Under the pieces are notes generated by a model that saw only the letters and a list, made by a program, of their open reading frames with translations, ran no database searches and was not told the DNA's origin. From Nostoc sp. PCC 7120 = FACHB-418 (GTDB lineage: Bacteria; Cyanobacteriota; Cyanobacteriia; Cyanobacteriales; Nostocaceae): a stretch of 32,000 bases of DNA. Position numbers and translations under genes: made by a program. Positions 3,242-25,490 of the stretch are shown piece after piece (position 1 is the first letter of the stretch; every line of letters begins with the position of its first letter). The stretch is from contig NC_003272.1 in the NCBI RefSeq assembly GCF_000009705.1, forward strand, positions 4,530,001 to 4,562,000, in the 5' to 3' direction.

Positions 3242-3320
3242 ATGTTAGTTAAATTTGGGAGTTGGGAAAGATAACTTTGTTGAAGCTTTGAGTAAATTAC
3301 ACAATAGGGTTTGATACAGC

Positions 3321-4808: not shown

Positions 4809-5049
4809 TTTCAAAGTCACGATCACTGTGAACTAAAAGTAAATAAAGCATTCTACCCAGAATATATCAGTATATTAACTTGTATTTTGTACCTAAGTAC
4901 AAGAGATTCAGTGTATTCCTCGCTGATATAGCAAAGATTTCCGCCTAATATCTAAATTCATGAGTCCCCGACTTCATGTTATTCGCTAATGCGATTCAAT
5001 TCATTTCTACCGCAGTGCTATCAATGTACTGATTTTTAACTCTCCGTAT

Positions 5050-7869: not shown

Positions 7870-7924
7870 TGTAACAGGACTTGGGAGTCCTGTCTCCGAC
7901 AAGAATTTTATTACCAGTGTCAAA

Positions 7925-9916
7925 ATGACTTCTATTAATCATGATCCAACTTTTTCTGGCAATAGTCGCTCCACCCTCAAAAAAAGAACACTTTTATTTC
8001 GTTACCTCGCAGAAATCAATTTAATTTTTGGTCTGTGGTATTTACAATGGCGCATTACCAACTCCATCAATTTTGATGCGTTATGGCTCTCGATTCCGTT
8101 GTTGCTGGCGGAAATTTATAGCTACCTTGGCGGAGTGATGTTTGTCATTGGCTTGTGGCGACCTTTAGTCCGACAGATTAAGTCACTTGACCAGTTGACT
8201 CCATCTCTACCGCAAACAGATTGGCCAATTGTAGATGTCTTTATCACCTGTTACAACGAACCGCCGGAGATGGTCGAACAAACGGCCCAAGCAGCTTTAG
8301 CCATAGATTATCCACCAACTAAGCTGTATGTTTATGTTTTGGATGATGGTAACTCCCCTGCTATGCGAGCCATGACGGAAAAGTTATGTATTGCAGATTT
8401 ACAGTCACCACTACTACAGCAAGAAGCCAACCGCATTGATGCAGAACGCTCACACTTGGTAGAACGTCTGCAAAAGTTAGAAAGTTTCACCTCTAATATT
8501 CAAGTGGCTGAAGAATGGTTGTCAAAATCGTCATCAGTTCCCAACCAGGACAAAACCACAGATGAAGTTTTAGCGCAGAGTTTGCAACAGTTTATTCGTT
8601 GGTTATCTCCCAAACATCACAGTATTGCTGAACGCCTCAAAACTGAACGCCAAGTTTTAGCAGGCGCTATTCGCCAAAAAGAACTGGAATTGGTCGAACT
8701 CACTAGATTTCGTTATATTGCTCGTCCCAAACCTGCGGGTGTACCCCACCATGCGAAAGCAGGAAACCTCAATTACGCAATTTTTTCTGGTGAAACTTCG
8801 GGAGAATTTATTCTCACTTTAGATGCTGATCATATTCCCAAACCCCAATTTCTCAAGCGGGTTTTGCCATATTTCTACACATATAATCTGTTTAATGGCA
8901 AGTATGAGCAAAACCGCATTGCTTTTGTACAGACACCTCAGGACTTTTATAATATTCCTCCCAGTGATCCCTTTGGGCATCGAGCCAGTTTATTTTATGG
9001 GCCACTACAACAGGGTAAAGATGGGATGAATGCGGCCTTTTATACAGGTACTAACGCTATTTTGCGACGTGAGGCCTTAATTAATGTGGGACTACAATAT
9101 TTTGCCGATGATTTTACCAAAGATGAAAAACGATTAGATGAATTTCAATTGGTTGGTGGTCTATCTAGCAACAGTATTACAGAAGATATGAATACCGCTA
9201 TGCGTTTGCATGGTGCTGGTTGGAAATCAGTTTATCATCATGAACTTTTGGCAGAAGGTTTAGCACCTGATGACCTCAGTTCTACTTTAAAACAAAGACT
9301 ACGTTGGGCGCAGGGAACAATCCAAGTACTAGTTAAAGAAAACCCACTGAGGAAATCAGGACTCACGTTTTGGCAACGTCTGCAATATTTTAAGACGATG
9401 TATAGTTATTTTTCCGGTTTTGCTACGCTTATTTTTATTTCTTGTCCAATTATTTATTTTTTTACAGAAATTGTTCCTGTAAAAACATACGGTACTGATT
9501 TCATTCTACACTTTTTACCCACCTTTATAATCAATCGTCTAACGTTTGTTGTAGCAATATGGGGTATTCCAGCTAGTGAAATCTGGCGTTCTGAACAATA
9601 TGCGATCGCTTTATTTCCCATATTTATTCAAGCTGTTTGGAGTGTATTCACTGGACAGAAGATGAACTTTCAAGTTACCCCTAAAGAACGGCAATCAGGT
9701 ATTTATCTGAGCATGATTTGGCCACAATTATTAATCTTCTTTTTAACTATTATAGGCATATTTTGGAGTCTTTATAGCTTTGCGATTGGTCGTCTCAATC
9801 ATCCTTGGGTAAACCTGCTCAATAGTTCCTGGGCTGTCTATAACTTGCTACTCTTATCAGGTATCATTCGTGCATCTGTTTGGCAAATGCCAAAATATGA
9901 TTCAAAGAAAGTGTAA
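7925..9916 (+). CDS. Processive family-2 glycosyltransferase, cellulose-synthase-like (CesA/BcsA type), no PilZ domain
   Basis: The conserved motifs appear in canonical order: VFITCYNEP, VLDDGN, HAKAGNLN, TLDADH, QTPQ, ITEDMNTA and QRLRWAQG (QxxRW). Two TM helices precede the catalytic domain and several follow it. I prefer the ATG at 7925 (MTSINHDP...) because the ORF-track start at 7835 would overlap the upstream gene by 35 nt. The start is uncertain. Confidence 0.85.
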   Translation: MTSINHDPTFSGNSRSTLKKRTLLFRYLAEINLIFGLWYLQWRITNSINFDALWLSIPLLLAEIYSYLGGVMFVIGLWRPLVRQIKSLDQLTPSLPQTDWPIVDVFITCYNEPPEMVEQTAQAALAIDYPPTKLYVYVLDDGNSPAMRAMTEKLCIADLQSPLLQQEANRIDAERSHLVERLQKLESFTSNIQVAEEWLSKSSSVPNQDKTTDEVLAQSLQQFIRWLSPKHHSIAERLKTERQVLAGAIRQKELELVELTRFRYIARPKPAGVPHHAKAGNLNYAIFSGETSGEFILTLDADHIPKPQFLKRVLPYFYTYNLFNGKYEQNRIAFVQTPQDFYNIPPSDPFGHRASLFYGPLQQGKDGMNAAFYTGTNAILRREALINVGLQYFADDFTKDEKRLDEFQLVGGLSSNSITEDMNTAMRLHGAGWKSVYHHELLAEGLAPDDLSSTLKQRLRWAQGTIQVLVKENPLRKSGLTFWQRLQYFKTMYSYFSGFATLIFISCPIIYFFTEIVPVKTYGTDFILHFLPTFIINRLTFVVAIWGIPASEIWRSEQYAIALFPIFIQAVWSVFTGQKMNFQVTPKERQSGIYLSMIWPQLLIFFLTIIGIFWSLYSFAIGRLNHPWVNLLNSSWAVYNLLLLSGIIRASVWQMPKYDSKKV

Positions 9917-10250: not shown

Positions 10251-10589
10251 ATGAATACAAACTTTCAAGTCATAGAAGTATCGGGTATTTTAGATGGAAT
10301 TAGGGGTAATCAACTACGTCGTGAAATTAGCGAATTGATTGCTGATGGTAACAATATTGTGTTGCTGGACATGAATTCAGTGACTTTTATGGATAGTTCT
10401 GGCTTAGGCTCTTTAGTATCGGCAATGCAAATGCTACGTTCTGTTAATTCCCAACTTTTTATCTGCTCTATGAATGACCAAGTTAAGATGTTGTTTGAAT
10501 TAACTAAAATGAATAGGATTTTTCAAACCTTTATCGATCAAGATGACTTTAAACGGCAAGTACTGACAGCCACAAGGGTTATTTCCTAA
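10251..10589 (+). CDS. STAS-domain anti-sigma-factor antagonist (SpoIIAA/RsbV-like)
   Basis: 112 aa. The typical STAS layout is present, with the conserved phosphorylatable serine motif FMDSSGLGSL (Ser50 in DSSG). Confidence 0.85.
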   Translation: MNTNFQVIEVSGILDGIRGNQLRREISELIADGNNIVLLDMNSVTFMDSSGLGSLVSAMQMLRSVNSQLFICSMNDQVKMLFELTKMNRIFQTFIDQDDFKRQVLTATRVIS

Positions 10590-10613
10590 TTAAAAAGAAT
10601 CAATATAACTCTA

Positions 10614-11804
10614 TTAACCCAAAGTAATTTTTAATAATGACAAATCATCTTCAATTATTTGTTGAATATTTAATGTCATTATTTGCATTAATATGTAATG
10701 AATATTACAGGGTTCTGCCTGGCTAGATTTAATTAGTATTTCAATAAAAGCATCGAGTCCTAAAATCTTGCCATCTGGCTCTCTAATTTCATAAATGCCA
10801 TCACTAAATATGTACAGAGTACTGTCTTTTTTTACTTCCCAGGCAGCATCTTCAAACTGCACATCAGGTAAAAATCCTATGGGTAAATCTAAAGAATTGA
10901 GTTGTTTAACTTGAAAACCAGTTTCAGATGTACCAGATAAAATTACAGCCGGGGGATGTCCGGCGCTAGCATAGACGAGTTGATGTTGAATACAGTGATA
11001 AACTCCATACCAAATTGTGAAGTATTTATCACCGTGGTTTGTCATCTGGAAAGCATGATTTAGTGCCTTGAGAACTTCTCTAGGCTTGTAGAAATTAGTA
11101 TTAGGTAAAGATTGCGATCGCAGAATATTCAAGATAGAGACAGATAATAGGGCAGAACCTATTCCATGTCCTGATACATCCAATAGATAAATTGCTAAAT
11201 GCTCGTCATCCAGCCAGTAATAATCGAAGCAATCACCCCCCAACTGGGTTGAAGGAATAAATAAGGCTTCTGTATTTACTCTTCCTTCTAGAGGTTTAGG
11301 TAGAAGCGATCGCACATAATCAGCAGCCTCGGCTAAGTCTGCTTCTAAAGTTTGCTTTTGGGTTTGTAAATCATGGTTGAGTATTTCTAAAGTTTGCTTT
11401 TGGGTTTGTAAATCCTGATTGAGCTGATGTAACCTGAGTCCGGCTCTTACCCGCGCTTTTAATTCAATCATTTCGATTGGTTTAGAGATAAACTCATCAG
11501 CTCCAGCATCCAGTCCTTTAACTCTGTCTTTCTCTTCTCCTGGCGCTGCTCCCTTAGCCGTTAACAAAATAAAAAAACTAGTTGCTAACTCTGGATTTGC
11601 TTTAATTTGACGACATACTTCCAATCCATCTAACGGAGACATTACCCAATCACAGATAATCAATGCGGGACGGAGCAGTTCTGCTTGAATAATTCCTTCC
11701 TTCCCATTGTTGACAACAGTAGTTTCATAACCCTGATTCTCAAGAGTTCTTTTTAGCACCGTCCGTACAACCGGATCATCATCAATAACTAAAATTTTTA
11801 CCAT
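10614..11804 (-). CDS. Response-regulator receiver fused to a PP2C/SpoIIE-type serine phosphatase (RsbY/RsbU-like)
   Basis: 396 aa. The N-terminal REC domain shows KILVIDDDP...LIICDWVMSPLDG...LTAKG...KP. A coiled-coil linker follows, then PP2C/SpoIIE motifs: LGGDCFDYYW, LLDVSGHGIGSALLS and IFSDGIYE. Confidence 0.85.
   Translation of the reverse strand: MVKILVIDDDPVVRTVLKRTLENQGYETTVVNNGKEGIIQAELLRPALIICDWVMSPLDGLEVCRQIKANPELATSFFILLTAKGAAPGEEKDRVKGLDAGADEFISKPIEMIELKARVRAGLRLHQLNQDLQTQKQTLEILNHDLQTQKQTLEADLAEAADYVRSLLPKPLEGRVNTEALFIPSTQLGGDCFDYYWLDDEHLAIYLLDVSGHGIGSALLSVSILNILRSQSLPNTNFYKPREVLKALNHAFQMTNHGDKYFTIWYGVYHCIQHQLVYASAGHPPAVILSGTSETGFQVKQLNSLDLPIGFLPDVQFEDAAWEVKKDSTLYIFSDGIYEIREPDGKILGLDAFIEILIKSSQAEPCNIHYILMQIMTLNIQQIIEDDLSLLKITLG
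11343..11426. repeat. 42-bp direct tandem duplication inside the REC-PP2C linker
   Basis: Unit 1 (11343-11384) is ttctaaagtttgcttttgggtttgtaaatcatggttgagtat. Unit 2 (11385-11426) is ttctaaagtttgcttttgggtttgtaaatcctgattgagctg. The first 30 nt are identical. The duplication is in frame and encodes LNQDLQTQKQTLEI / LNHDLQTQKQTLEA. Confidence 0.9.
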
Positions 11805-11953
11805 AAGTGATGGGCTAATAAATATAATCTCAATTGAGTATTGTATTTATTTCAAATTAACTATAATCGAGTTGATAATGTACAGTGAAAATACTCAAAT
11901 TAAATAAAATGATCATTGTGTATGCTTGATTCAAGTCTATTCTTATCTAAGAA

Positions 11954-12370
11954 GTGAATAATAAAATTTATTTAAAATTAAATACGGACTTAGCAGCCTC
12001 GACTGAGGTGTTGTCATGGTTCGAGCAGATAAATCGACCAGTTATTTCTCATCAGCAAATCTGGTGGCAATGTCAAACATTACTAATGGAGGGATTTGCT
12101 AATATTGTTGAACATTCACACAAACATTTACCAATAGAAACACCTATTGAGATAGAAGTTTCACGAACACAGGATTATATAGAAATACGTATATGGTCGC
12201 AAGGTGAACCCTTTGACTTAGAACAGCGATTAAAAAAAACAACTGAACTGGAAGAAAATATTCAAGAGCGCGGTCGCGGCTTAAGAATTATGGAAGCGAT
12301 CGCCGATGATTTAAGTTATGAAAAACTAGCAGATAATCGCCACTGTTTATTTATTCGTAAATACTATTAA
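11954..12370 (+). CDS. RsbW/SpoIIAB-like anti-sigma factor serine kinase (HATPase_c only)
   Basis: 138 aa with a GTG start. It has an N-box-like [11 protein letters not shown] and a G2-like [16 protein letters not shown]. The G1 position reads SQGEPFD, which is degenerate relative to DxGxG. It is divergent from the PP2C gene and lies 37 bp upstream of the hybrid kinase. Confidence 0.75.
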
Positions 12371-12407: not shown

Positions 12408-15400
12408 ATGAAAGCACAATTGCCTGATAACGAAGTGCAGAGAATTGCAGCACTTTTAGAGTATAAAATTCTTGATACTCCACCCGAAGCAGCATTTGAT
12501 GATATCACCCGTTTAGCATCATATATTTGTGGAACTCCGATTGCTTTAATCAGCTTAATTGACCAAAATCGTCAATGGTTTAAGGCAACATTTGGGCTGG
12601 AGAGGCGAGAAACACCGCGAGATGAGGCATTTTGCGCTCATACTATTTTAGAATCTGAAGCCTTTATCGTACCTGATGCCACAGCCGACGAACGCTTTGC
12701 TACAAATCCATTAGTCATATCTGATCCCAAAATTCGATTTTATGCGGGTGTACCTCTCACTAACCCTGAAGGCTATTCCTTGGGAACACTTTGTGTTATT
12801 GATTACATACCCAGGAACTTAAGTTTTGAACAGATTGAGGCGCTACAAATTCTAGGTCGCCAAGTCATAAAGCAATTGGAACTGCGGCGTAACTTAGCGA
12901 ATTTAGTACTGGTAAATAATCAACACAAACAAGCACAAAAAATCCGCCATCCATTTTTTAAAAAAATTGCTGGTGGCTTTGGATTGGCATCAGTCTTTTT
13001 AGTCTTACTTGGCTTGGCTTCCTATCAGGCTGAAATCGAATTAATTCATAATGGCAATCAAGTCCAAACAACCCAAGAAAGCATTAATAACTTAGAACAA
13101 CTGCTGTCTCAAATGAAGGATGCAGAAACTGGACAACGTGGTTACATTTTGACAGGAAAAGACCCTTATCTGCAAACTTATCAAACAGCGCTAGCAAACA
13201 TTGATCAGAAGTTTGATGAACTGAGAAATGCCACAGTTGATCCAGTCCGCCAACAGCGTCTTGTCATACTCAAACCTCTGATTACCGCAAAAATTACTGA
13301 ACTGAATCAAACTATCAAACTACGACAGAATCTAGGCTTCCAGGCAGCATTACAGGTCATCCAATCCGATCAAGGGCAAACTCTCATGGATGACATCCGC
13401 AAAGTGATGCGTGAAATGGAGACAGAGAACAAGGTGCGCCTTCAACAGCAATTACAAGCGGTAAAAGCCAGTGAGCAAAAAGTTATTTTCATCTTGGCGA
13501 TCGCTATCGTCTCAGGTTTTATCATTCTCGCTGTTGTTTACTACCTAATTTATTGTGAAGTTATTGCCCGCCAGTCGATGGAAAATATACTCAACGAAGA
13601 GCGTAATTTTATTTCGGCAGTACTGGATACAGTCAGCGCCTTGGTCATCGTCCTAGATTCCCAAGGGCGAATTGTTCGCTTTAATCAAGCTTGTGAGGTG
13701 ATAACTGGTTACTCATTCGATGAGGTCAGGGGTAGGCATTTTTGGAATCTGTTTTTGCTTCCTGAAGACGTAGAGTCAAGCAAAGAATTTTTTGCCAAGT
13801 TCCCAGCAGATCCAACAGTACCCAGTGTTCAGGAGTCTGAAAACTATTGGGTAACTAAAGATGGTAGTCGGCGCTTAATTGCATGGTCGAGAACTATCCT
13901 GCAAAACCATGAGGGTTCGGTAGAATACATTATTGGTACAGGCATTGATATTACTGAGCGCAAACGTGCAGACAAGCATTTGACAATACAATATGCCATC
14001 ACTCGTGTCTTGGCAGAATCTACAACGATTACCGAAGCTACGCCCCAAATTTTGCAAGCCATTTGTGAAACCTTGGGATGGAATGTCTGTGAAATTTGGA
14101 TGGTAAATCAGCAAGCAAATTTCTTGAGTTTTTTCGACCTGTGGCATCACACATCTTTGGAAATGCAGGAGTTTAGAACCCAAAGTCAGCCAATCACATT
14201 TGCATCGGGGATTGGATTGCCAGGACGGATTTGGGCTAGTGGTCAACCCATTTGGCTGACCGATATCGTCAATGATGGCAGCTTTCTGAGAAACCAATTA
14301 GCAGCGCAAGTAGGATTGCGTGGTGCTTTTGGTTTTCCGATTCGGAGTGGGCAAAAAATTCTGGGAGTCATTACCTGCTTTAGTCATCAAGTTCAGCCGC
14401 ATGACCCAGATTTGGCAAAAATCATGGATTCTATTGGCGAACAAGTAGGGCAGTTTATCCATCGTAAACAGGCAGAGGAGGAACTGCAACGGCAAAACCT
14501 GCGATCGCAATTATTCACAGAAATCACTCTCAAAATTCGCCAATCTTTGCAAATTGAAGAAATCTTACAAATCACTGTCAAAGAAGTACAAAAGATTCTC
14601 CAGACTGATCGAGTTTTAATTTATCAGTTACTGCCTGATGGTTCTGGAAGTCTGATCATTGAGGCAGTCGTGGCTGGTTGGGCAGCAATTAAAGGACAAA
14701 ATATTACTGATTTTTATTTGCAAACAGAATATCAACAGCAGTATTGTCTACAACAGTATCGCCTCAGGCATCTGGAGGCGATCGCTAACCTAGATTTGGG
14801 AGAGATTCAACAAAGCCATCTAGAATTACTCAGAAAGTTTGGGGTTAAAGCTAATTTAGTTATACCTATTCTTGTCAAAGATGAACTCTGTGGCTTACTA
14901 ATTGTCCATCAGTGCGCCACCTCCCGCCAATGGACAAGTTTTGAGACCCATCTTTTACGACAAATAGCAGACCAAGTAGGTATCGCTGTAGCCCAAGCCC
15001 AACTCTTAGAAGTAGAAACTCGACAGCGACAGGAACTAGAAGTTGCCCGTAGTCAGGCTGAATTAGCTTCTCATGCTAAAAGCGCTTTTTTGGCGAATAT
15101 GAGTCATGAAATCCGCACACCCATGAATGCTGTATTGGGGATGACTGGCTTAATGCTAGAAACTCTTCTCAACCAAGAGCAGCGAGATTTTATGGAAACT
15201 ATTCGCATTAGTGGCGATGCACTTTTAACTCTCATTAACGAGATATTGGATCTCTCCAAACTGGAGGCTGGGGAAATGGCTTTAGAAAATTTGAATTTTA
15301 ATTTATCAACCTGTGTGGAAGAAGTTTTAGATTTATTAGCCCCCCAAGCTCATAGTAAGGGATTAGAAATTGCTGCTTTAATCTATCGCCACGTTCCTAT

Positions 15401-17060
15401 CCAACTCCAAGGAGATGCTAGCCGTCTGCGACAAATTCTCATGAACCTGATTGGCAACGCTATCAAGTTCACTAGTTTTGGGGAAGTAGTCATGCGAGTA
15501 GAATTGCGATCGGAAACTCCTACTACAGCTATTATCCACTTTGCCGTTACAGATAGTGGCTTGGGCATTACTTTAGAAGACCAACACAAACTGTTTACCC
15601 CTTTTACTCAAGTAGATGCTTCCACCACGCGTAAGTATGGTGGTACTGGTTTGGGATTAGCAATATGCAAACAATTAGTGACATTAATGGGAGGAGAAAT
15701 TGGTGTAGAAAGTCAGTTAGGCAAAGGTTCTAAATTTTGGTTTGAAATTCCTTTCGCCAAACAACTCCAGCCTGTTTCTTTTGTAGAAGATTGCGGACTA
15801 TTAAACAATCGCCGTTTACTGGTGGTGGATGACCACGCCACTAATCGAAAAATTATTTATCACCAAGTTAGTCGATGGGGAATGCAGGTAGATCAAGCTG
15901 ATAGAGCTGTTGCGGCTCTAAGTATGATTGTGGAAGCTTGTCAGCAGAATAAGCCCTACGATGTCATCTTAATCGATATGCAGATGCCTGAAATGGATGG
16001 GATGGCTTTGGGAAAACAAATTAAGGCCAATTCTGCTATTCCTCCAACACCCTTAATTATGCTCACTTCTACTAATCAACGTGACGAAGTGCAACAGGCA
16101 ATTAAGATTGGATTTGCTGCTTATTTGGTCAAACCTGTAAAATCATCTCGGTTGCTCGACACTATAATGAGTGTTTTAAAAACTCCGTCACAATTGGAAG
16201 CAGAGAAGTTGGAAGTAAAGAGTCAAGAGTTAGAAAAGAACAATTTAGATCACAGCCGCAACCATAATTTTACTGCTACCCAGGCTCAGAATTCTGTTTC
16301 AACAAAAACTAGAATCCTACTGGCTGAGGATAACTTAGTTAACCAAAAAGTGGCTCTTAAACAACTCCAAAGCCTTGGTTATACAGCTGATGTTGCTGCT
16401 AACGGCAAAGAGGTTTTACAACTATTAAAACAAATTCCCTACGATTTGATTTTAATGGATTGTCAAATGCCAATTCTTGATGGTTTGGAAGCCACAAAAG
16501 AAATTCATCGTTGGGCAGAAAGCTCCTTTGCTAGCTGTCGTCGTCCTGTGATTATTGCGATGACAGCTAATGCCATGAAAGAAGACAAACAAATGTGTCT
16601 AGATGCCGGCATGGATGATTATTTGAGCAAGCCTGTGATGAAAGAACAATTGGCGACAGCATTAGAATATTGGTGCCAGTTAATACTAAATTCACGACAG
16701 GCAGTAGAGTTTGATCTAAATAGTCTTCCTCTTGACTGGGAACACTTACATCAACTTTCCGAAAACGATACAGAATTTGAATTACATTTGTTGCAAATAT
16801 TCGTTGAGGATGTCCGAGCTAGATTAGAGTTAGCTAAAGAGGCGATCGCTAACACTGACTTTCAACAGATGGCTCAACAAGTCCATCAGCTGAAAGGCGC
16901 TAGTACCAATATCGGCGCTACAGCTATGTATCTAGCTGCTGAAAAGCTAGAACAGCTAGCTCAAAACCAAGAGCGTAGAGGCAGCATGGAGTTAATTACA
17001 GAAATAGAAGAGGGTGTCAACCAGATTCAAGCCTTTCTAACTAGAAGCCAAATTGTTTGA
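12408..17060 (+). CDS. Multi-sensor hybrid histidine kinase: GAF - TM - CHASE3 - TM - PAS - GAF - GAF - HisKA - HATPase - REC - REC - Hpt
   Basis: 1550 aa.
- N-terminal GAF-like domain: [25 protein letters not shown]....
- TM1: [20 protein letters not shown].
- CHASE3-like region: [25 protein letters not shown].
- TM2: [24 protein letters not shown].
- PAS: [20 protein letters not shown]....
- Two GAF domains.
- H-box [12 protein letters not shown], with His900 at nt 15105-15107.
- HATPase N and G boxes.
- REC aspartates at D1190 (nt 15975) and D1351 (nt 16458).
- Hpt motif [12 protein letters not shown], with H1493 at nt 16884. Confidence 0.9.
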
Positions 17061-17800: not shown

Positions 17801-19567
17801 ATGGGTATCTTGAATAAATTTTGTCAGGGTCAAATTTTTACTTGGTCGTTACTCAATATCTTTTTGCTTGCTGCTTGTTCTTCTCCTCAGGGGGAAACTC
17901 CTACAAACTCTACACCCGTAACAAACTCTAGTGCAGGGGAAACCTTACGTCTACTCTATTGGCAAGCACCAACTATACTCAATCCTCACCTAGCACAAGG
18001 ATCTAAAGACTTTGAAGCCAGTCGTATCGTCTATGAACCCCTGGCCAGCCATGATAAAGACGGTAAATTAGTGCTGTTTTTAGCCGCAGAGGAACCTACT
18101 CTAGAAAATGGTGGTATTGCCAAAGATGGCAAATCAGTTACCTGGAAACTCAAGCAAGGAATCAAATGGTCTGATGGTCAACCTTTTACGGCTGCGGATG
18201 TGGTATTTACTTACAAATTTCTCTCCAATCCGGCTGTCGGTGCTACCACCTCGGCTAATTACGAAGTCGTGAAAAGCGTCGAAGCCATCGACGATTACAC
18301 CGTCAAAGTTAATTTCCAGAGTCCTAACCCAGCTTGGTCACTACCTTTCGTGGGCTTAAATGGAATGATTATCCCCCGTCACATTTTCGAGAAATTTAAT
18401 GGTAGTAACGCCAGGGAAGCCCCAGGGAATTTAATTCCTGTAGGTACAGGCCCTTATAAAGTCGGAGAATTTAAACCCGGTGACACCATTATCTATGAGG
18501 CTAATTCTGTATTCCGTGAAGCCAATAAACCTTTCTTTAAGCGAGTAGAACTCAAGGGAGGTGGTGATGCGACATCAGCCGCTAGAGCAGTACTGCAAAC
18601 TGGAGATGTAGACTACGCTTGGAACTTGCAAGTAGAAGCCCCAATCCTCAAGCAACTAGAAGCAGCCGGTAAAGGGAGATTAGATATTAGTTTTGGTTCT
18701 TTTTTAGAACGGATTACTATCAATCATACCGATCCGAATAAACAAACAAAAGACGGCGAACGTTCCAGCACTGAATTTCCTCATCCTTTTTTCCAAGATA
18801 TCAAAGTGCGTCAAGCGTTTAACTATGCAATTGATCGGGACACAATTAATCAGCAATTATACGGATCAAGTGGTCGTCCTGCTGCCAATATCCTATTAGC
18901 ACCAGAGATTTATAACTCACCTAATACTAAATATGAATTTAGCCCCAAAAAAGCTATTGATTTATTAGATGAAGCTGGATGGAAAGATACAAATGGTAAT
19001 GGCATTCGAGATAAAAACGGTATAGAGATGAATGTTTTACTTCAGACATCTGTAAATCCAGTAAGACAAAAAACTCAGGAAATTATTAAACAAGGATTAA
19101 CCTCTATTGGTGTCGGGGTGGAACTAAAAAGTATTGATGGTAGTATCTTCTTTTCTGGAGATCCATCGAACCCAGATACCTTAGGAAGGTTTCAAGCTGA
19201 TTTACAAATGTTTAGTACAGGTAGTACGAATGTAGACCCTGGTGCTTATATGAAAGGCTTTACTTGTAGCGAGATTTCCCAGAAAAAGAATAACTGGTCA
19301 AAATCCAATTATTCACGTTACTGTAATCCTGAATATGACAAGCTCTGGCAACAGTCCAACACAGAATTAAATCCTGAAAAACGTCGGCAGCTATTTATTC
19401 AGATGAATGATTTGCTATTCAAAGATATTGCCCTAATTCCCTTGATTGCCCGTGCTGATGTCAATGGCGTGAGCAATAGACTAGTCGGTGTAGATTTAAC
19501 TCCTTGGGATACCGATACGTGGAATATTAAAGATTGGCGACAAGTCCAGCCTCTTGGTAACAGGTAA
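17801..19567 (+). CDS. ABC-transporter substrate-binding lipoprotein, family 5 (peptide/nickel/opine type)
   Basis: 588 aa. The signal peptide carries a lipobox (LLAAC|SS). Size and sequence blocks (e.g. KWSDGQPFTAADVVFTY, GTGPYKV, DYAWN) are typical of OppA/DppA/NikA-like SBPs. No permease or ATPase genes are present in the window. Confidence 0.85.
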   Translation: MGILNKFCQGQIFTWSLLNIFLLAACSSPQGETPTNSTPVTNSSAGETLRLLYWQAPTILNPHLAQGSKDFEASRIVYEPLASHDKDGKLVLFLAAEEPTLENGGIAKDGKSVTWKLKQGIKWSDGQPFTAADVVFTYKFLSNPAVGATTSANYEVVKSVEAIDDYTVKVNFQSPNPAWSLPFVGLNGMIIPRHIFEKFNGSNAREAPGNLIPVGTGPYKVGEFKPGDTIIYEANSVFREANKPFFKRVELKGGGDATSAARAVLQTGDVDYAWNLQVEAPILKQLEAAGKGRLDISFGSFLERITINHTDPNKQTKDGERSSTEFPHPFFQDIKVRQAFNYAIDRDTINQQLYGSSGRPAANILLAPEIYNSPNTKYEFSPKKAIDLLDEAGWKDTNGNGIRDKNGIEMNVLLQTSVNPVRQKTQEIIKQGLTSIGVGVELKSIDGSIFFSGDPSNPDTLGRFQADLQMFSTGSTNVDPGAYMKGFTCSEISQKKNNWSKSNYSRYCNPEYDKLWQQSNTELNPEKRRQLFIQMNDLLFKDIALIPLIARADVNGVSNRLVGVDLTPWDTDTWNIKDWRQVQPLGNR

Positions 19568-19637
19568 TTGGAATATTCTCATTACTTATTACATCAATCT
19601 CAAGCTAGAAATTCAATTTTTTAATTTATAGCTTGAG

Positions 19638-19643
19638 TATAAT
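19638..19643 (+). promoter_or_regulatory. Candidate -10 box (TATAAT) upstream of the small peptide ORF
   Basis: A perfect TATAAT lies about 75 nt upstream of the ATG at 19719. It immediately follows a 9-bp inverted repeat, CTCAAGCTA (19599-19607) / TAGCTTGAG (19629-19637). The -35 region is only weakly TTG-like. Confidence 0.3.
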
Positions 19644-19718
19644 TTAATCTCTGCAAAATCCTACTTATATAAAACCATAGGTGTTATTTACCTATTGACG
19701 TAAGTGAGGCTAACAATC

Positions 19719-19895
19719 ATGTCAAATCAAATTTTTGTATCAGATTTACTCATGGATTTATCCGCAGAGGAACAGCAATTTCTTGCTGGGGGTCAAGACC
19801 GTAGAGATGAAGAATTCCAAAGAGATAGAGGTGATAGAGGTGATAGAAGAAATAGATACTTCTGTCGCTACTGCTATGATTGTCGCCGTGACTAA
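19719..19895 (+). CDS. Small secreted-peptide precursor candidate with a double-glycine leader and an Arg/Asp-rich, CxxCxxC core
   Basis: 58 codons: MSNQIFVSDLLMDLSAEEQQFLAGG | QDRRDEEFQRDRGDRGDRRNRYFCRYCYDCRRD. The ATG at 19719 is preceded by GTGAGG (19704-19709). The leader LSAEEQQFLAGG fits the LSxxELxxIxGG-type double-glycine consensus. A hairpin lies downstream at 19935-19957. The ORF-track version (19704, GTG) is 5 codons longer. Confidence 0.6.
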   Translation: MSNQIFVSDLLMDLSAEEQQFLAGGQDRRDEEFQRDRGDRGDRRNRYFCRYCYDCRRD

Positions 19896-19934
19896 ACTTG
19901 TTAGTTATAGCTGTGTTGACTGTTGACAGATTTT

Positions 19935-19963
19935 AAATCCTTTGATTGTCAGGATTTTATCTT
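19935..19963 (+). terminator. Possible intrinsic terminator after the small peptide ORF
   Basis: AAATCCT (19935-19941) pairs with AGGATTT (19951-19957) across a 9-nt loop, followed by TATCTT. The stem is AT-rich, so this is a weak terminator. Confidence 0.4.
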
Positions 19964-20032
19964 AGCTTGATGTCTTGATCTATCTGGCTACAGCTATAAC
20001 ACCAAATTCTATAATCCTGTCGGCAAGTGGAT

Positions 20033-20091
20033 GATAGTAGAAGGGTATGGAATTATCCTTCTACTATCGTATTTATTGCATTCTTTTTTTT
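20033..20091. terminator. 12-bp hairpin between the peptide ORF and the convergent kinase gene, followed by a T-run on the plus strand
   Basis: GATAGTAGAAGG (20033-20044) pairs with CCTTCTACTATC (20057-20068) across a 12-nt loop. A T9 run sits about 12 nt downstream (20083-20091). The spacing from stem to T-run is non-canonical. Confidence 0.35.
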
Positions 20092-20133
20092 AAATTACAA
20101 TAACTTAATTTCAGAAGTCCGAGAAATTCTTCC

Positions 20134-21243
20134 TCAAATATTTTTAGGCAGTTTGACTGTGAATTTACTACCTTTACCTACTTCAGAAACCAAGCTAATC
20201 ATACCTTCGTGGGCTTCAACAATACGACTGGACAAATGCAGACCTAAACCACTACCTGAACGTTTATTCCTTCCCTGTCGAAAGCGCTCAAAAATGGTTA
20301 CTTGGTCTTCGGGAGCAATACCATAACCAGTATCTTCAATTTCAATTGTTAACCAATGATTATTGGGTTCAAAAAAGCGAATTTCAATGCCGCCAGTATC
20401 TGTAAACTTGATGGCATTTGCTACTAAGTTGTACAACACGCGGCGTAGTTCGAGGGTATCGCCCATGACTATACCTGCTTTTTCTCCTAAGTTATCTATC
20501 TGACTGCTATCTATTTTTAAGGCGATACCTTTTTCATTAGTTAGAGTTGTGAGTTCGCTAACCACTTCTTGAGCGATTTCTTTTAAGTTACAGCTTTCAT
20601 AATTTAATGTTTTCTTACCGGCTTCAAAGCGATAAACTTCTAGTAAGGTATTAACCATCTGCATCAAATTTTGATTGCTGCGAATCATGACAGCGATCGC
20701 CTGTTTCATTTCTGGCGAAATTTTGCAAAAAGCTTCTTGTTGAAACAAGTCCAACATCCGATCGGCTGCTACTAGCGGTGTGCGTAAATCGTGGGTCAGG
20801 CGTGACACAAAGTCTTCCCTTTGGCGTGCCATTTTCTTTTGTTCGTCCAGACTGTGCTTGAGGCGTAGGAGCGATCGCACTCTAGCCAATAGTTCATCTG
20901 TATCAAATGGTTTGCGAATGAAATCATCCGCGCCTACGTCCAAACCTTCCACAACACTCGATTCGTGAAAAGCTGTAATCAACAATATTGGTATATAACT
21001 GAGGGCTGGGTTATTGCGAATGCGTCGCGTCACTTCATAACCATCCATCCCCGGCATCATTACATCTAATAAGATTAAATCTGGTGGAGACTGTTCTACT
21101 TTTTGCAAAGCTGAAATGCCATCACTGGCTAAATCAATTTCATAGCCTTCACTTTCTAAAATTGTTTGCACTAAAATCAGATTATCTCTAGTGTCGTCAA
21201 CAGCCAAAATTCGATCAATTTGATGATTTTCCACAACAGACAT
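20134..21243 (-). CDS. Hybrid REC-HisKA-HATPase histidine kinase (N-terminal receiver)
   Basis: 369 aa. REC motifs are ILAVDDTRDN...LILLDVMMPGMDG...KP. The H-box is LTHDLRTPL. HATPase motifs are NLVANAIKFT, DTGYGI and GSGLGLHL. Confidence 0.9.
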   Translation of the reverse strand: MSVVENHQIDRILAVDDTRDNLILVQTILESEGYEIDLASDGISALQKVEQSPPDLILLDVMMPGMDGYEVTRRIRNNPALSYIPILLITAFHESSVVEGLDVGADDFIRKPFDTDELLARVRSLLRLKHSLDEQKKMARQREDFVSRLTHDLRTPLVAADRMLDLFQQEAFCKISPEMKQAIAVMIRSNQNLMQMVNTLLEVYRFEAGKKTLNYESCNLKEIAQEVVSELTTLTNEKGIALKIDSSQIDNLGEKAGIVMGDTLELRRVLYNLVANAIKFTDTGGIEIRFFEPNNHWLTIEIEDTGYGIAPEDQVTIFERFRQGRNKRSGSGLGLHLSSRIVEAHEGMISLVSEVGKGSKFTVKLPKNI

Positions 21244-21272
21244 GATAATAAATTTGTTTTATATATATAAAT

Positions 21273-22604
21273 TTATAACTTAAGATTATGATATTTTCTG
21301 GCGGTTGGGTTGGATTTAGCCGTAGGGTGGTGTACTTTGTGATCTGGCTGCATCATTTCTTTCGCATCTTGCACAGATGATGAAGATAGAGATGAATTTG
21401 ATAATGGCAATTGTCTTGGCAATGTAATGGTAAAAATTGAACCTACTCCCAATTGACTTTCTAGGAAAATTTTACCACTCATCATTTGCACTAATGAGTC
21501 GATAATTGCCAATCCCAAACCTGTCCCTGGATACTTGCGAGTAATGCTTTGATCAACTTGTCGAAAAGCCTCAAAAATATATTTAAAATCTTTAGCTGCT
21601 ATACCAATACCTGTATCTTTTACTTTAATTTCCACCCAACTTCCTGGTAAGTCTTTTACGTCGATCCAAATACTACCAGAGTCTGTGAACTTAATGGCAT
21701 TAGATAATAAATTTATTAAAATTTGTTTAATTCGTACTGGATCATTTACTAGCAAAGAATTTTGTAAGTCAATCTGCACTAGCAAAGACAACTTTTTTGC
21801 CTCAGCTAGAGAACGCATTTCCATAACTACGGCGTTAATGACTTTAGTTAAATCAAATAATTCTGGCTTCAGTTCTAATCTTCCTTCTTCCAATTTGGAG
21901 AAGTCTAAAACTTCGTTTAATAGCATCAGTAAATGTTTGCCGTTATTCAAAATACGTTCTACCATGTCGGCTTGCTGACCTGTGAGATTACCGAATTTAG
22001 GGCGTGATAGTATCTGAGCAAAACCGATAATCGCGTTCATTGGTGTCCTTAATTCATGGGACATGGTAGCGAGAAATTGAGATTTCAGCCGCGATGCTTC
22101 GAGCAATTTTAAGTTTTGAATTTGGATTTGTTGCCGTTGTCGTTCTAATTCTTGATTTTTTCGCACCAGTTGCTCATGACTTTCTCTCAGTTGTTGGTAG
22201 GCAATAGTAGTCTGCATTTCCGCACGATAAAGCCGTATCGCATTGCGTAAAACTTGAGCTAAAGTTTCTGATGAGACTCTAAATTTAGATAGGTAATCTG
22301 TTGCACCAGCTTTCATTAACTCCACAGCAATTTGTTCATCACCTTGAGAAGTCAAAACTACTAAAGGAATTTTGATATTTAAGCCACGAATTGTTTCGAT
22401 TAAGTTCAAACCGTCTTGGTCGGGTAAACGATAGTCGATAAAGGCACAATCAAAAGACCTATGTCTTAAGATAGAGAGTGCCGTACTTCCATCACTTACC
22501 TCTGACATTTCCATGCGTACCCCAGCTTTAACCAAGGCACGGCGGACTGCCATACGGTCTACTTCATCATCGTCTACAACCAAAATCTTGAGCGTTTCTT
22601 CCAT
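21273..22604 (-). CDS. Hybrid REC-coiled coil-HisKA-HATPase histidine kinase (N-terminal receiver)
   Basis: 443 aa. REC motifs are ILVVDDDEVD...FIDYRLPDQDG. The H-box is MSHELRTPMNAI. HATPase motifs are NLLSNAIKFT, DTGIGI and GTGLGLAI. It lies 29 bp upstream of the next kinase gene. Confidence 0.9.
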   Translation of the reverse strand: MEETLKILVVDDDEVDRMAVRRALVKAGVRMEMSEVSDGSTALSILRHRSFDCAFIDYRLPDQDGLNLIETIRGLNIKIPLVVLTSQGDEQIAVELMKAGATDYLSKFRVSSETLAQVLRNAIRLYRAEMQTTIAYQQLRESHEQLVRKNQELERQRQQIQIQNLKLLEASRLKSQFLATMSHELRTPMNAIIGFAQILSRPKFGNLTGQQADMVERILNNGKHLLMLLNEVLDFSKLEEGRLELKPELFDLTKVINAVVMEMRSLAEAKKLSLLVQIDLQNSLLVNDPVRIKQILINLLSNAIKFTDSGSIWIDVKDLPGSWVEIKVKDTGIGIAAKDFKYIFEAFRQVDQSITRKYPGTGLGLAIIDSLVQMMSGKIFLESQLGVGSIFTITLPRQLPLSNSSLSSSSVQDAKEMMQPDHKVHHPTAKSNPTARKYHNLKL

Positions 22605-22854
22605 CGGTTTTTATATTTGCTGCCAAATACAGGTTGATTTCAAACATTTCTCGGTTCAACTTGTTCAACTAAAAATTAGAGCCTCTTGAATATAGTCTTG
22701 GTTAATTCTTATATTTGATTTGAGCAAGGCTGATTCTCAATATCAAAGATAAAAATTAGTGTTTCTCATTTTGTTTAGATCAATTTAATAGGGCATAATT
22801 CATGTTACTGAAAAATACGATAGTCTCGGCTCACAAAATCTGTTGTTACACAGA

Positions 22855-23286
22855 CTAAGGCATTTCACAGAATACCCAATATTTATTGAGTGCTGCTATT
22901 ATTTCTACAAAATTGGAGAATGTGACGGGCTTGAGGATATAACCAGCAACGTTTAAGTTGTAAGCTTCCACACGGTCTTTATCTTGGTTTGATGTCGTCA
23001 TCACAACTACAGGCGTTAGTCGTAGTTGGGGATCGGATCTTAATTCCTGCAAGAATTCAATACCACCCATTCTAGGCATATTCAAGTCTAGCAAAATTAG
23101 GCGACGTTCATGGGGGAAAGTTGGCGTTTGGGCATGATCGCCACGCAAAATCTTTAAAGCCTCTAAGCCATTATTTGCTAAATAAATAGGATTAGTAATA
23201 TTAACTTTTTTGAATGCTCGTTTGACATTCATGACATCAACTTCATCATCCTCCACTAATAGTATGTTAATCACTCTTTCCTGCAT
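22855..23286 (-). CDS. Single-domain CheY-like response regulator
   Basis: 143 aa consisting of a REC domain only: ILLVEDDEVD...LLDLNMPRMGG...GYILKP. It resembles the stand-alone receivers often paired with cyanobacterial sensor kinases. Confidence 0.9.
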   Translation of the reverse strand: MQERVINILLVEDDEVDVMNVKRAFKKVNITNPIYLANNGLEALKILRGDHAQTPTFPHERRLILLDLNMPRMGGIEFLQELRSDPQLRLTPVVVMTTSNQDKDRVEAYNLNVAGYILKPVTFSNFVEIIAALNKYWVFCEMP

Positions 23287-23523
23287 TTTTTGTATTTAAA
23301 CTATGCTTTTTATGGGAGGCTAGCTAATTCGTGAATAGTTATTCATGAATTAGTAATGAGTACTATAAAAATGCTGAGTGCTTGTGCAGACTAAGCTTTT
23401 ACTAAGTAAAATACAATACTTGAGTGAAGCTTCAACCCAATTGTAAAAGAGCGACTGAACGCACGTCCTCACCCATTAGTGAGAGTTGGAGAAAATCATT
23501 GTGTACCATAAGCTTGAGCTATT

Positions 23524-25050
23524 TTACTCAAGAGAACGTTTAGGCCAAGTAAAACGAAATGTACTACCAGGCCCGGAGACAGGCTGCAAATTTATGGAAC
23601 CCCCTTCCGTTTCGACAATTTTTTTGACGATCGCCAAGCCAATTCCCGTATTTTCTTTGCGATCGCGCGGTTCGAGAGTTTGGAAAATTACAAAAACCTT
23701 GTCGTGATATTCTACAGGTATGCCAGGGCCATCATCTTCTACACTAAATTCGTAGTATTTGCCCAAATCTCGCACCGAAATTTTTACCCTACCATCAACC
23801 CGTGTGTGGTGTTCAATTGCATTTTCGATTAAGTTAGCGAACACCTGTTGTAAGGGAACTCTCTTTGTGACTAAAGTAGGCATTTCTGTCTGGATTTGAA
23901 TATGAAAACTTGCCGGTGGTTGCAACGAGTCGATTACTTCCCTGAGTAATGAGTCCACATTGACCTGTGTTAATTCTGTGTGGACGCGGCCAATACGCGA
24001 ATATTCCAGTAGACCATTAATTAAGGCTTCCATGCGCCGCACCCGACCCCGCAACAATTGCATTTGATGTTGATTTTCTTCGGGAAGCTGGTCGGCGAGG
24101 TCTTCTTCTAACCATTCTGATAAACTAGCGATCGCCCGTAAAGGCGCTTTTAAATCATGGGATGCAACATAAGCAAACTGGTCTAATTCTTGATTGCGTT
24201 GTTGCAACAACGTGGTAGTTTTCGCCAGGATAGTGTTTAAGCGTGTCAGTTGTTTAGTTCGTTGTTGGAGTGTAATTTCTACTTGCTTACGTGGGTTAAT
24301 ATCAACGCAGGAACCTACATAACCAGCGAAACTACCATCTGAATTAAATCTGGGTGTACCTGTATCAAAAATCCAGCGATATTGACCATCAAAACGTTTG
24401 AGGCGATACTCCATCATGAAAACTTCTCGATGGTCGAAAGCTGTAGTATATGTGTGAATACAACGTTCTCGGTCTTCTGGATGTACCCCTTCTACCCAAC
24501 CATTACCTAATTCTTCTGCCATTGTGCGTCCTGTGAAGTCTAGCCAGCCTTGATTAAAAAAATTGCAGAGTTTGTCTAGTCCTGACATCCAAATCATCAC
24601 AGGCGCGCTATTCGCCATAATTGCGAATCTTCCTTCACTCTCGCGCAATGCTTCTTCTATCTGGTGACGTTCACTAATATCCACTACTGTGCCGATATAG
24701 CCGACTATCCGCCCATCTTCATCAATTTCTACTACTGCTTCTGACAGTACCCAAGTAATTTTGCCTTGAGGATCTTGTAAGCGCAACTCAGTTTTATCTG
24801 ACTTCTGCTTTGACAAAATTAACTGGGCTTGCGTTTCTACAAGTTTCAAATCATCTGGATGAATAGCTACTTGCCAACCTCGACCCAATGATTGTTTTTT
24901 AGAAAGACCAGACATTTCACACCAACGCTCGTTGACATAAAGACAATTACCCAATAAGTCTGCACGCAATATGCCAACGGGGGCTATTCTTGCTATATTT
25001 TCAGAGTGGCGATCGCTCTCTGGAGTTGTTTGATTGCTTGTAGTTATCAT
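23524..25050 (-). CDS. PAS-PAS sensor histidine kinase (soluble)
   Basis: There are two PAS/PAC-like repeats (NERWCEMSGL...; FNQGWLDFTGR...). The H-box is VASHDLKAPLRAI. HATPase motifs are NLIENAIEHH, DDGPGI and GIGLAIVKKI. I place the start at the ATG at 25050 (MITTSNQ...), which has AAGGA 7 nt upstream. The track start at 25101 is a TTG. Confidence 0.85.
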   Translation of the reverse strand: MITTSNQTTPESDRHSENIARIAPVGILRADLLGNCLYVNERWCEMSGLSKKQSLGRGWQVAIHPDDLKLVETQAQLILSKQKSDKTELRLQDPQGKITWVLSEAVVEIDEDGRIVGYIGTVVDISERHQIEEALRESEGRFAIMANSAPVMIWMSGLDKLCNFFNQGWLDFTGRTMAEELGNGWVEGVHPEDRERCIHTYTTAFDHREVFMMEYRLKRFDGQYRWIFDTGTPRFNSDGSFAGYVGSCVDINPRKQVEITLQQRTKQLTRLNTILAKTTTLLQQRNQELDQFAYVASHDLKAPLRAIASLSEWLEEDLADQLPEENQHQMQLLRGRVRRMEALINGLLEYSRIGRVHTELTQVNVDSLLREVIDSLQPPASFHIQIQTEMPTLVTKRVPLQQVFANLIENAIEHHTRVDGRVKISVRDLGKYYEFSVEDDGPGIPVEYHDKVFVIFQTLEPRDRKENTGIGLAIVKKIVETEGGSINLQPVSGPGSTFRFTWPKRSLE

Positions 25051-25490
25051 ACAAACATCCTTCATAAAAATTCGACAAGACAATATCCCCAACTTCTTCA
25101 AGAAGTCGGGGATCTGAGTAATCAGACTTTGTGTTTATATTCCTGATACAAATTATCCACCTATTAATATTTACTACCTTACTTTCATAAAGTTGACAAT
25201 ACTTCGTCATAAGATGAAATTAAATTTAAAACATTACTACCCAGAAATGATTTTACCTTTGCCAAAACCAATATATTGTCACAGTATTCTATATTTTCTT
25301 GTAAAATAGCGATATATCTATAGCCAGATTTTTATCTCTATCTAGACCCAAAAAAAATAGATTTATTATTTCTATCGGTGGATGCAGGCGCATCAAGATA
25401 TCATCTATCTTTGGTTTGGGAAAATAATAGAAGTGACTGAAAAAATAGCTTAGTTTGCAAGAAGCAATTAGACAAAGAGTGAGTGTAACG

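Follow-up and report, generated by a model that had tools for sequence, protein, structure and literature searches.

A solitary, highly charged double-glycine peptide gene of Nostoc sp. PCC 7120 and its probable place in the CTB-type family

We focus here on a small gene of the cyanobacterium Nostoc sp. PCC 7120 = FACHB-418, which lies on the forward strand of a stretch of 32,000 nucleotides (NC_003272.1, positions 4,530,001 to 4,562,000; hereafter the window, from whose first letter all coordinates are counted). The open reading frame (ORF) at 19719-19895, which runs from an ATG at 19719 to a TAA at 19893-19895 and has 58 codons, is a genuine and conserved coding gene. Judged by its sequence, its product is an orphan precursor of the CTB-type family, a group of double-glycine peptides that is already known from cyanobacteria and is functionally uncharacterised, and it would represent a new core variant there, which we call class A. 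It is probable, in our view, that this translated precursor, encoded by a solitary gene, is a remote substrate of a C39-peptidase ATP-binding cassette (ABC) exporter, which would cut it after Gly25 and secrete a peptide of 33 residues. The evidence supports four elements of this proposal, namely that the ORF is coding and conserved, that the cassette preceding it is common to the family, that the family bearing this cassette is linked to exporters and that such an exporter is on record on a contig that is probably the window's own chromosome; the acting exporter, the cleavage, the export and the disulfides are steps that we infer.

Coding status and the double-glycine leader

First of all, the ORF is more than a chance reading of the DNA, since the ratio of nonsynonymous to synonymous substitution rates (dN/dS) is low, the indel is in frame and the C-terminal amino acid motif is kept in relatives only 49-62% identical. 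Close orthologues occupy the same neighbourhood in Anabaena sp. CCY 9910, Trichormus variabilis and Nostoc parmelioides, and Nei-Gojobori counts give a dN/dS of 0.11 against Anabaena CCY 9910 and of 0.27 against N. parmelioides. The sole indel is of 3 nucleotides and falls within an Arg/Asp repeat, where the Anabaena CCY 9910 gene is one codon shorter. The reading frame, whose conservation the first-pass annotation of this DNA had proposed as a check, is kept in the relatives with a bias to synonymous change, and a search for homologues, proposed alongside it, finds both the leader and the spacing of the Cys residues conserved among class A relatives.

The signals described earlier for this 58-codon ORF are all in place. 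The Shine-Dalgarno-like GTGAGG lies at 19704-19709, 9 nucleotides 5' of the ATG, within an AGTGAGG that is near-invariant across the family, and the -10-like TATAAT at 19638-19643 lies within a promoter-like region at 19600..19649 on the same strand, where there is no good -35 element and a sigma-70 scan called no promoter. The description of the gene as unannotated, by contrast, has to be withdrawn, as the 58-residue product is already present in public protein collections, on 28 contigs (the gene is placed at about 4,548,335 on CP183817.1), where its orthologues are named 'hypothetical protein'. Public records likewise hold a version of 63 residues that begins at a GTG at 19704. This codon falls within the Shine-Dalgarno site, and the ATG is therefore taken as the real start; an ATG start is also used throughout the CTB-type family. 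The peptide sequence is printed in no paper that we found, the locus-tag prefixes asr36, asr37 and asr38 led to no paper that discusses the gene, and the supplements of a survey of small RNAs in heterocystous cyanobacteria do not contain its 5' region.

Second, the first 25 residues, MSNQIFVSDLLMDLSAEEQQFLAGG (25 codons, 19719..19793, forward strand), are a double-glycine leader, as had been proposed, and the same type of leader adjoins genes for C39-peptidase ABC exporters and HlyD proteins in many Nostocales genomes. The precursor can be written as MSNQIFVSDLLMDLSAEEQQFLAGG / QDRRDEEFQRDRGDRGDRRNRYFCRYCYDCRRD, with cleavage predicted after Gly25. The classical double-glycine consensus has Gly-Gly at -2/-1, Glu at -8 and a hydrophobic residue at each of -4, -7, -12 and -15; the leader described here has G-2, G-1, L-4, E-8, S-11, L-12 and L-15. 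It fits the pattern M-S-x-Q-(3-4)-S-D/E-L-L-x-D/E-L-S-x-x-E/Q-Q-Q-x-L-x-G-G, and it aligns with those of the 38 cluster representatives found to share it by a profile search that was exhaustive over 1.84 billion cluster representatives, as well as with about 95 peptides of the loci that we fetched. AlphaFold2 places two helices in it, at low confidence. Among curated models, NCBIfam NF038167, 'CTB family bacteriocin' ('cyan_ocin_like'), matches residues 1-28 only, at model positions 1-25 of 72, and no other double-glycine leader model scored at E <= 10.

The peptide had been thought to match no recognised class. This does not hold for its leader, which matches NF038167 below the cut-off and, weakly, the Pfam family PF28158, nor for its surroundings, as promoter, 5' hairpin, Shine-Dalgarno site and leader are common to about 95 distinct CTB-type peptides of the fetched loci, where the genes often stand in tandem arrays, each with its own upstream copy of the cassette. 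With the CTB family the class A peptides have in common the type of leader, the cassette of promoter, hairpin and Shine-Dalgarno site, the restriction to Nostocales and a core that is first acidic and then basic, as in about half of the family. They differ in a core unrelated to the part that NF038167 models, in solitary genes remote from exporters, in having the most charged cores and in an invariant Cys/Tyr motif of their own. None of the CTB papers that we found to mention the family reports a functional test of any member.

The upstream cassette and the class A core

DNA alignment of class A genes from unrelated neighbourhoods shows that about 130 nucleotides upstream are conserved. A promoter-like block that ends in a -10-like (G/T)ATAAT comes first, followed by A/T-rich DNA, by the hairpin ATAGGTn-N5-nACCTAT and lastly by ACGTAAGTGAGG-N9-ATG. 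A consensus of 52 loci, anchored on the hairpin, shows that the promoter and the 5' leader of the message are common to CTB-type loci, with a family -10 consensus of GA(A/T)TAAT, a tAACtt before it and a CAAAAG-like box further upstream. The hairpin of the window gene, ATAGGTG-TTATT-TACCTAT at 19677..19695 on the forward strand, has a core stem of 6 bp with a seventh, G.U pair, and the gene conforms to the cassette pattern across 19677-19721, with hairpin, AGTGAGG and an ATG about 9 nucleotides on. In our collection the cassette was seen in the window (19600-19709) and at 49 further loci.

We scanned one genome per species, from 185,579 species, for ATAGGT-N7-ACCTAT-N4-8-AGTGAGG, and recovered 50 stretches, of which 42 come from Nostocales or from one other cyanobacterial metagenome-assembled genome; in 41 of these 42 an ORF with a CTB-type leader begins about 9 nucleotides past the match. 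The other eight stretches, from unrelated phyla, have no such ORF and are about as many as chance would give.

Stems of at least 6 bp occur at the expected place in 73 of 90 upstream regions, as against a mean of 19 and a maximum of 28 in shuffled sequences. In an alignment of 56 sequences 91.6% of the cells are paired, 11 of them as G.U, and four of the seven pairs have changed on both sides, giving paired variants such as TTAGGTG/CACCTAA, TAGATGT/ACATCTA and ACATGTG/CACATGT; only one of 500 shuffles reached the same pairing score. The covariation is modest, and the sequence of the stem is itself strongly conserved. We lean towards an RNA hairpin rather than a DNA operator, given that G.U pairs occur on the sense strand and that the palindrome follows the -10 element. 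A search of 19400-20300 against Rfam at E <= 10 returned only spurious matches to microRNAs and small RNAs, far below their thresholds, and none to a family that covers the hairpin.

Third, it is the core that sets class A apart. The core QDRRDEEFQRDRGDRGDRRNRYFCRYCYDCRRD (19794..19892, forward strand) has 33 residues and a monoisotopic mass of 4374.95 Da, and the composition reported for it earlier is correct: 11 Arg, 7 Asp and 2 Glu, a CxxCxxC triad and the end YFCRYCYDCRRD. Its N-terminal 17 residues are acidic, with an isoelectric point (pI) of 4.7, and its C-terminal 16 residues are basic, with a pI of 9.5. A 9-bp tandem direct repeat, two copies of GATAGAGGT at 19824..19841 on the forward strand, encodes DRG-DRG in the length-variable Arg/Asp region, in which the number of repeats varies across class A. 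The motif that defines the class, RYFCRYCYDC in the window peptide (residues 46-55, 19854..19883, forward strand), reads [RK]Y-x-C-x-[YF]-C-Y-x-C in general and is kept in the relatives of 49-62% identity, whose genomic contexts are unrelated. In an alignment of 11 class A sequences M1, S2, L10, L11, L14, S15, Q19, G24, G25, Q26, Y47, C49, C52, Y53 and C55 are invariant, and R46, R50, Y51 and D54 are at least 90% conserved.

Class A comprises about 14 distinct sequences, from Nostoc/Anabaena/Trichormus, Desmonostoc, Komarekiella and Atlanticothrix. Five representatives below 50% cluster identity, which share the leader, the Arg/Lys-Asp repeats and the C-terminal motif, were added by the profile search, and three more by a word-indexed search. 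The remaining profile matches carry the leader as MSxQ..SDLLxDLSxEEQQxLxGG, followed by cores that are quite different. Set against 94 cores of the family, those of class A are 58-70% charged, compared with a family median of 30%, and they occupy nine of the top ten places. The expectation that double-glycine cores are Gly-rich or hydrophobic, against which the peptide had first seemed so odd, is untrue of the CTB-type family, in which charged cores are normal and class A is the extreme. The plan of the core is likewise shared: a net acidic first half followed by a net basic second half is found in 49 of the 94 cores, an initial Gln in 39 and exactly three Cys in 24. Several other core classes end in short modules that are rich in Arg/Lys and often contain Cys or Tyr (...RRYLIRGVVSLRSI, ...RRRYRCCYYSWYPCKKY, ...RRCFRFRRCVRRCFRFS). 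A search of solved structures with the core turned up no relative, its matches being at the level of chance (dynactin at an E of about 8), and Pfam and PADLOC scans of the peptide assign it to no family.

The arrays that adjoin exporters, at eleven of our loci, hold at least seven recurrent core classes that are kept across genera, among them ...MYVGHKITVTPFSKCVGG..., ...DIRITGNLTT..IPILVLGFR..., ...SRRYPTYICRPVYG..., Trp/Gly/Arg repeats, and poly-Asp followed by ...KIFIVKVYKKPSCCKPK...; the repertoire of core classes is mixed in each genome. In Desmonostoc vinosum (our locus L003) the class A gene lacks the usual upstream cassette, and just 3' of it an ORF of 69 residues (10414-10623) has a different double-glycine-type leader (MITHLSCFEELSTSQTEAISGG...) and a core that contains Trp, Tyr and Cys.

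Exporter, proposed pathway and alternative roles

The 32-kb window contains neither a C39 exporter nor a modification enzyme, as was noted at the outset, and genes for radical-SAM, lanthionine, cyclodehydratase or similar enzymes are found neither in it nor in the 10-kb flanks of four further class A genes. The neighbours at these four loci are mutually unrelated and include no exporter. Class A genes are always solitary: a tblastn search finds an exporter at none of nine class A loci (8-16 kb), as against 24 of 37 loci of other classes (8 kb), a difference with a Fisher p of 4.5e-4. In the canonical cluster, that of Nostoc sp. UIC 10890, a CTB peptide gene is followed by genes for an HlyD-type adaptor, a C39-ABC exporter of 722 residues and three more CTB peptides, and the exporter orthologues at other-class loci are 78-94% identical to the UIC 10890 exporter.

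An exporter of this kind is probably also encoded in the genome studied here. The exporter cluster P0154, 81% identical to the UIC 10890 exporter, has members from T. variabilis, N. parmelioides, Anabaena CCY 9910 and A. subtropica and includes a protein of 722 residues, BAB73158.1 (P0221), which probably lies on the window's own chromosome. Its C39 domain is intact by alignment, and aligns to that of PCAT1 (4RY2) with E = 1e-22; the catalytic Cys, His and Asp of PCAT1 appear to be aligned in it. The notion that the genome might lack any processing exporter, raised at first as a possible objection, is not borne out with this candidate at hand. In T. variabilis, the sister strain, the exporter gene is followed by genes for CTB peptides of 62, 86 and 68 residues, whose leaders (MSNQMLASNLLEDLSLDQQQSLAGG and similar) and hairpins match those of the window gene. 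Wang et al. 2011 (PMC3140520, Table S3) list a group III cluster of asr1202 (62 residues), asr1203 (95 residues) and asr1204 (68 residues), of which, according to PMC12267927, Alr1201 is the C39 exporter and Alr1200 the HlyD protein. Since the T. variabilis array parallels asr1202-asr1204 beside Alr1201/Alr1200, P0221 would correspond to Alr1201 of PCC 7120; lengths of 62 and 68 residues agree with asr1202 and asr1204, and the middle gene has 86 residues in T. variabilis as against the 95 listed for asr1203. The window gene itself does not appear in that table, and the survey behind it covered only the surroundings of exporters. Genomes with class A genes also hold an exporter-linked array, as seen in Komarekiella (L005/L043), Desmonostoc (L003/L018), Trichormus M33 (L027/L040) and Nostoc B(2019) (L056/L012).

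We thus propose the following pathway. The gene would be transcribed from the promoter of its own cassette, with the -10 element at 19638-19643, to give a message with a 5' leader of about 70 nucleotides, in which the conserved 7-bp hairpin at 19677-19695 would stand just before the strong Shine-Dalgarno site. A peptidase-containing ABC exporter, encoded at another place on the chromosome, would recognise the precursor of 58 residues by its helical leader; the likeliest candidate is the C39 transporter of 722 residues that heads the family's own array, with its HlyD-type adaptor (putatively Alr1201 and Alr1200). The exporter would cut after Gly24-Gly25 and release the 33-residue peptide, whose N-terminal Gln could cyclise to pyroglutamate (4357.93 Da). 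The mature peptide would consist of a segment of well-mixed Arg and Asp followed by a cationic Tyr/Cys module with three Cys; disulfides would be expected outside the cell, where the odd number of Cys would favour intermolecular links or one free thiol.

As to activity, our working guess is an extracellular, unmodified cationic peptide, in which Arg/Asp serves as a charge-neutralising spacer, and which acts on other cells or on the sheath or biofilm matrix. Tachyplesin, protegrin and defensin are cationic host-defence peptides, rich in Arg, Tyr and Cys, that are made with an anionic pro-segment. By analogy of composition only, their precursors and class A alike have a short C-terminal module rich in Arg, aromatic residues and Cys (RRNRYFCRYCYDCRRD, pI 9.5) after an acidic segment (pI 4.7) that could neutralise it. 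Class A, on the other hand, is bacterial, has three Cys rather than four or six and shows no homology to them, and its acidic and basic residues are interleaved, with no second cleavage known, whereas the precursors of host-defence peptides have a separate pro-piece.

The arrangement that we propose has precedents. In prochlorosin-type systems many precursors have a conserved leader and hypervariable cores, and some are encoded far from the single processing enzyme. The CTB-type peptides resemble them in the conserved leader and hypervariable cores, in the multiple core classes per genome and, as we predict, in satellites that are processed in trans; they differ in that the class A leader is not of the NHLP or Nif11 type (neither family matched) and that the class A genes examined have no gene for a lanthionine synthetase or another modification enzyme in their vicinity. 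With classical double-glycine class II bacteriocins and microcins (colicin V with CvaB; PCAT1 with its substrate) the window peptide has in common a leader ending in Gly-Gly, in which Leu stands at -4, -12 and -15, with a Glu at -8 and a Ser at -11, and a candidate exporter whose C39 domain aligns with PCAT1; class A differs from them in the residue at -7, in the lack of an adjacent immunity or exporter gene and in a core that is neither Gly-rich nor hydrophobic.

Several observations weigh against this proposal. The match to NF038167, at 27.6 bits (E = 2.5e-6), falls short of the curated cut-off of 32 bits; so do further peptides that share this leader, those adjacent to exporters included, with 13-27 bits, and the model is therefore specific to one core class. 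The precomputed match to Pfam PF28158 'CTB', held by the window protein and by several relatives, is marked 'weak', and a local Pfam scan was empty. At position -7 the leader has Gln, where the classical consensus has a hydrophobic residue. AlphaFold2, given the alignment of 11 sequences, finds no confident fold, with a mean predicted local distance difference test score of 49.9 and helices only in the leader and at the start of the core. Class A genes never lie beside an exporter, so that it is likeness of the leader, and not gene order, that would pair them with one. Furthermore, the class A loci examined have no immunity gene and no conserved neighbour, which fits a classical bacteriocin poorly. 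Finally, other C39 exporters of PCC 7120, namely Alr5147, Alr7014, Alr1927 and HetC (PMC12267927, PMC10986499), could act instead.

Of the alternatives, the one to be taken most seriously is that the peptide is exported and is not antimicrobial, serving instead as a biofilm, sheath-matrix or cell-to-cell factor like the EbfG peptides secreted through PteB. We regard such a matrix or signalling role as a serious rival to an antimicrobial one, with perhaps one chance in a few of being correct; in such a role the Cys/Tyr end would form cross-links, or the charged repeats would bind polysaccharide or cations. The comparison with EbfG1-4 and PteB of Synechococcus elongatus PCC 7942 is apt in that these too are small double-glycine precursors of a cyanobacterium, exported (as predicted for class A) by a C39 ABC transporter, and in that their role is non-antimicrobial, which shows that the name 'bacteriocin' need not describe function. 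Alr1201 reportedly shares 55.8% identity with PteB, through which the EbfG peptides that enable biofilm formation are exported (PMC12267927; PMC4997328), and for asr1202, a CTB-type gene beside alr1201, an 11-fold induction is reported in biofilms of Anabaena (PMC13156569); in Nodularia, phosphate starvation induces CTB genes (PMC9846622). The single copy of class A, its lack of an immunity gene and its purifying selection across genera also suit a physiological factor better than an arms-race toxin. The likeness has its limits, however: the ebfG genes adjoin pteB, the EbfG cores have no similarity to that of class A, BLASTP homologues of EbfG1-4 were not found in Anabaena (PMC12267927), and the window peptide is absent from the candidates of Wang et al. 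2011 that the same study examined. Moreover, amyloid formation is reported for EbfG1-3 (Frenkel et al. 2023, cited in PMC12267927), and a core of which about 60% (61% in the window peptide) is charged is unlikely to do so.

A combined interpretation, which we hold only tentatively and rate below the plain matrix or signalling role, is that class A is a conserved secreted factor of heterocyst-forming cyanobacteria, redox-active, metal-binding or signalling, and not a toxin, and that the CTB-type repertoire is co-regulated through a cis-element. The invariant Y-x-C-x-Y-C-Y-x-C module could then be the active site, with the Arg/Asp repeats as a solubilising tether, and the promoter box with the ATAGGTG/CACCTAT hairpin could switch on the scattered satellites and the exporter array at the same time, for instance when cells form biofilms or face nutrient stress. 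We found no description of a cis-element composed of this promoter box and hairpin, and no Rfam family for it.

It is improbable, in our judgement, that the protein stays in the cytoplasm, with the CxxCxxC binding a metal or an iron-sulfur cluster, or the Arg-rich region binding nucleic acid, and with the 'leader' as no more than an N-terminal helix. CxxC-type spacing is typical of metal sites, no exporter is nearby, and a fold stabilised purely by disulfides would be hard to reconcile with three Cys, an odd number. The leader, Shine-Dalgarno site and hairpin are, however, those of peptides encoded directly beside C39 exporters; Gly24-Gly25-Gln26 is invariant in class A; three Cys are common in this family of secreted type (the 24 of 94 cores given above); and the peptide matches no metal-binding family or solved structure.

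Very doubtful, too, is a developmental signal related to PatS, HetN and PatX (of the RGSGR type), or a peptide that is the substrate of the exporter HetC. PatS, HetN and PatX are small Arg/Gly-containing peptides of heterocyst-forming cyanobacteria that act between cells, and the core of the window peptide includes the string RGDRGDR; the CTB-type family, furthermore, is essentially confined to heterocyst-forming cyanobacteria. The RG(S/T)GR pentapeptide is absent, and the nearest string is not kept even in close relatives (RDRDRGDR, ERGDRGER), while distant class A members have DRDRDR or KDKDKD; because RGDRGDR is not conserved, a PatS-like role appears unlikely. We know of no double-glycine leader of this type in PatS. 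As for HetC, class A is patchy, with about 11 clusters at 90% identity among the proteins searched, whereas hetC is, as far as is known, general to heterocyst formers, and the leader matches those of Alr1201-type array peptides. In favour of the link to HetC, this exporter has no known substrate, and double-glycine genes are lacking in the vicinity of hetC (PMC10986499). Least credible of all is a non-coding RNA or regulatory region in place of a protein gene, for although the 130 or so nucleotides upstream are as conserved as the ORF in close relatives and the 3' region folds strongly (z-score of -4.3 for 19893-20100), the synonymous bias, the in-frame indel, an amino acid motif kept across divergent DNA, a strong Shine-Dalgarno site at the right spacing and the lack of an Rfam family all speak against it.

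Surrounding features and significance

Downstream of the gene, the first-pass annotation had drawn attention to an 11-bp inverted repeat, 19904-19914 / 19990-20000. The repeat is present and its arms are 100% complementary, but it is not a feature of the peptide family: it bounds a segment of about 97 nucleotides (19904..20000), with STRR-like GTTGACT heptamers inside, that is repeat-like DNA, inserted into the 3' untranslated region in a lineage-specific manner. This segment is missing in Anabaena CCY 9910, is present in N. parmelioides at 95% identity with extra GTTGACT heptamers (where one assembly contig, L001, breaks off inside the repeat) and was not seen beside other class A genes; we have rejected the inverted repeat as a regulatory or mobile feature of the gene, since what it bounds is a lineage-specific insertion. 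Further downstream, a terminator-like 17-bp hairpin with a T run at 20031-20070, one such site where shuffles predict 0.2, separates the peptide gene from a convergent response-regulator/kinase gene that ends at 20134, and is kept in Anabaena CCY 9910. With T/A runs on either side and a position between convergent genes, it resembles a bidirectional terminator.

The neighbouring genes provided no partner for the peptide. The SBP_bac_5 gene upstream (17801-19567, a family-5 solute-binding protein) was considered as a peptide receptor or importer and rejected, as the two genes adjoin each other in close relatives only, and at none of the distant class A loci. In Komarekiella atlantica (L005) a gene of the tyrosinase family (7293-8867), at a distance of some 1.1 kb, is encoded on the strand opposite to that of the class A gene, and the peptide motif is Tyr-rich; as a partner that modifies Tyr it was likewise rejected, being found in one genome only. 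Elsewhere in the window, 1940-9916 holds a polysaccharide-type cluster with a BcsC-like outer-membrane protein, two DUF3131 proteins (495 and 939 residues, the longer with two copies of the domain) and a family-2 glycosyltransferase of 693 residues similar to cellulose synthase. At 10251-12370, genes for a STAS-domain protein, for a response regulator that carries a PP2C/SpoIIE phosphatase domain and for a small kinase of the HATPase_c_2 type form a partner-switching module, which is adjoined by the gene for a hybrid histidine kinase of 1550 residues (12408-17060), and four more two-component genes lie downstream of the peptide gene at 20134-25101.

PCC 7120 is the main model for multicellular cyanobacteria, and its many double-glycine peptides and C39 exporters are almost wholly without known function; even HetC, which is essential for heterocyst formation, still lacks a known substrate. 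In one sense the gene described here is a correctly recognised orphan member of a known family. What it adds is that this family has satellite genes scattered around the chromosome; the one described here is not listed in the earlier survey, which was centred on exporters. The most useful by-product is the cassette of promoter, hairpin and leader, which provides a handle for listing the full repertoire of substrates and for seeking a regulator. Class A itself, compact at 33 residues, in need of no modification enzymes and open to synthesis, is a good case for learning what 'bacteriocin-like' peptides do, and its interest would rise further if class A proved to be signalling or metal-binding, or if a new regulatory element were to be recognised in the cassette.

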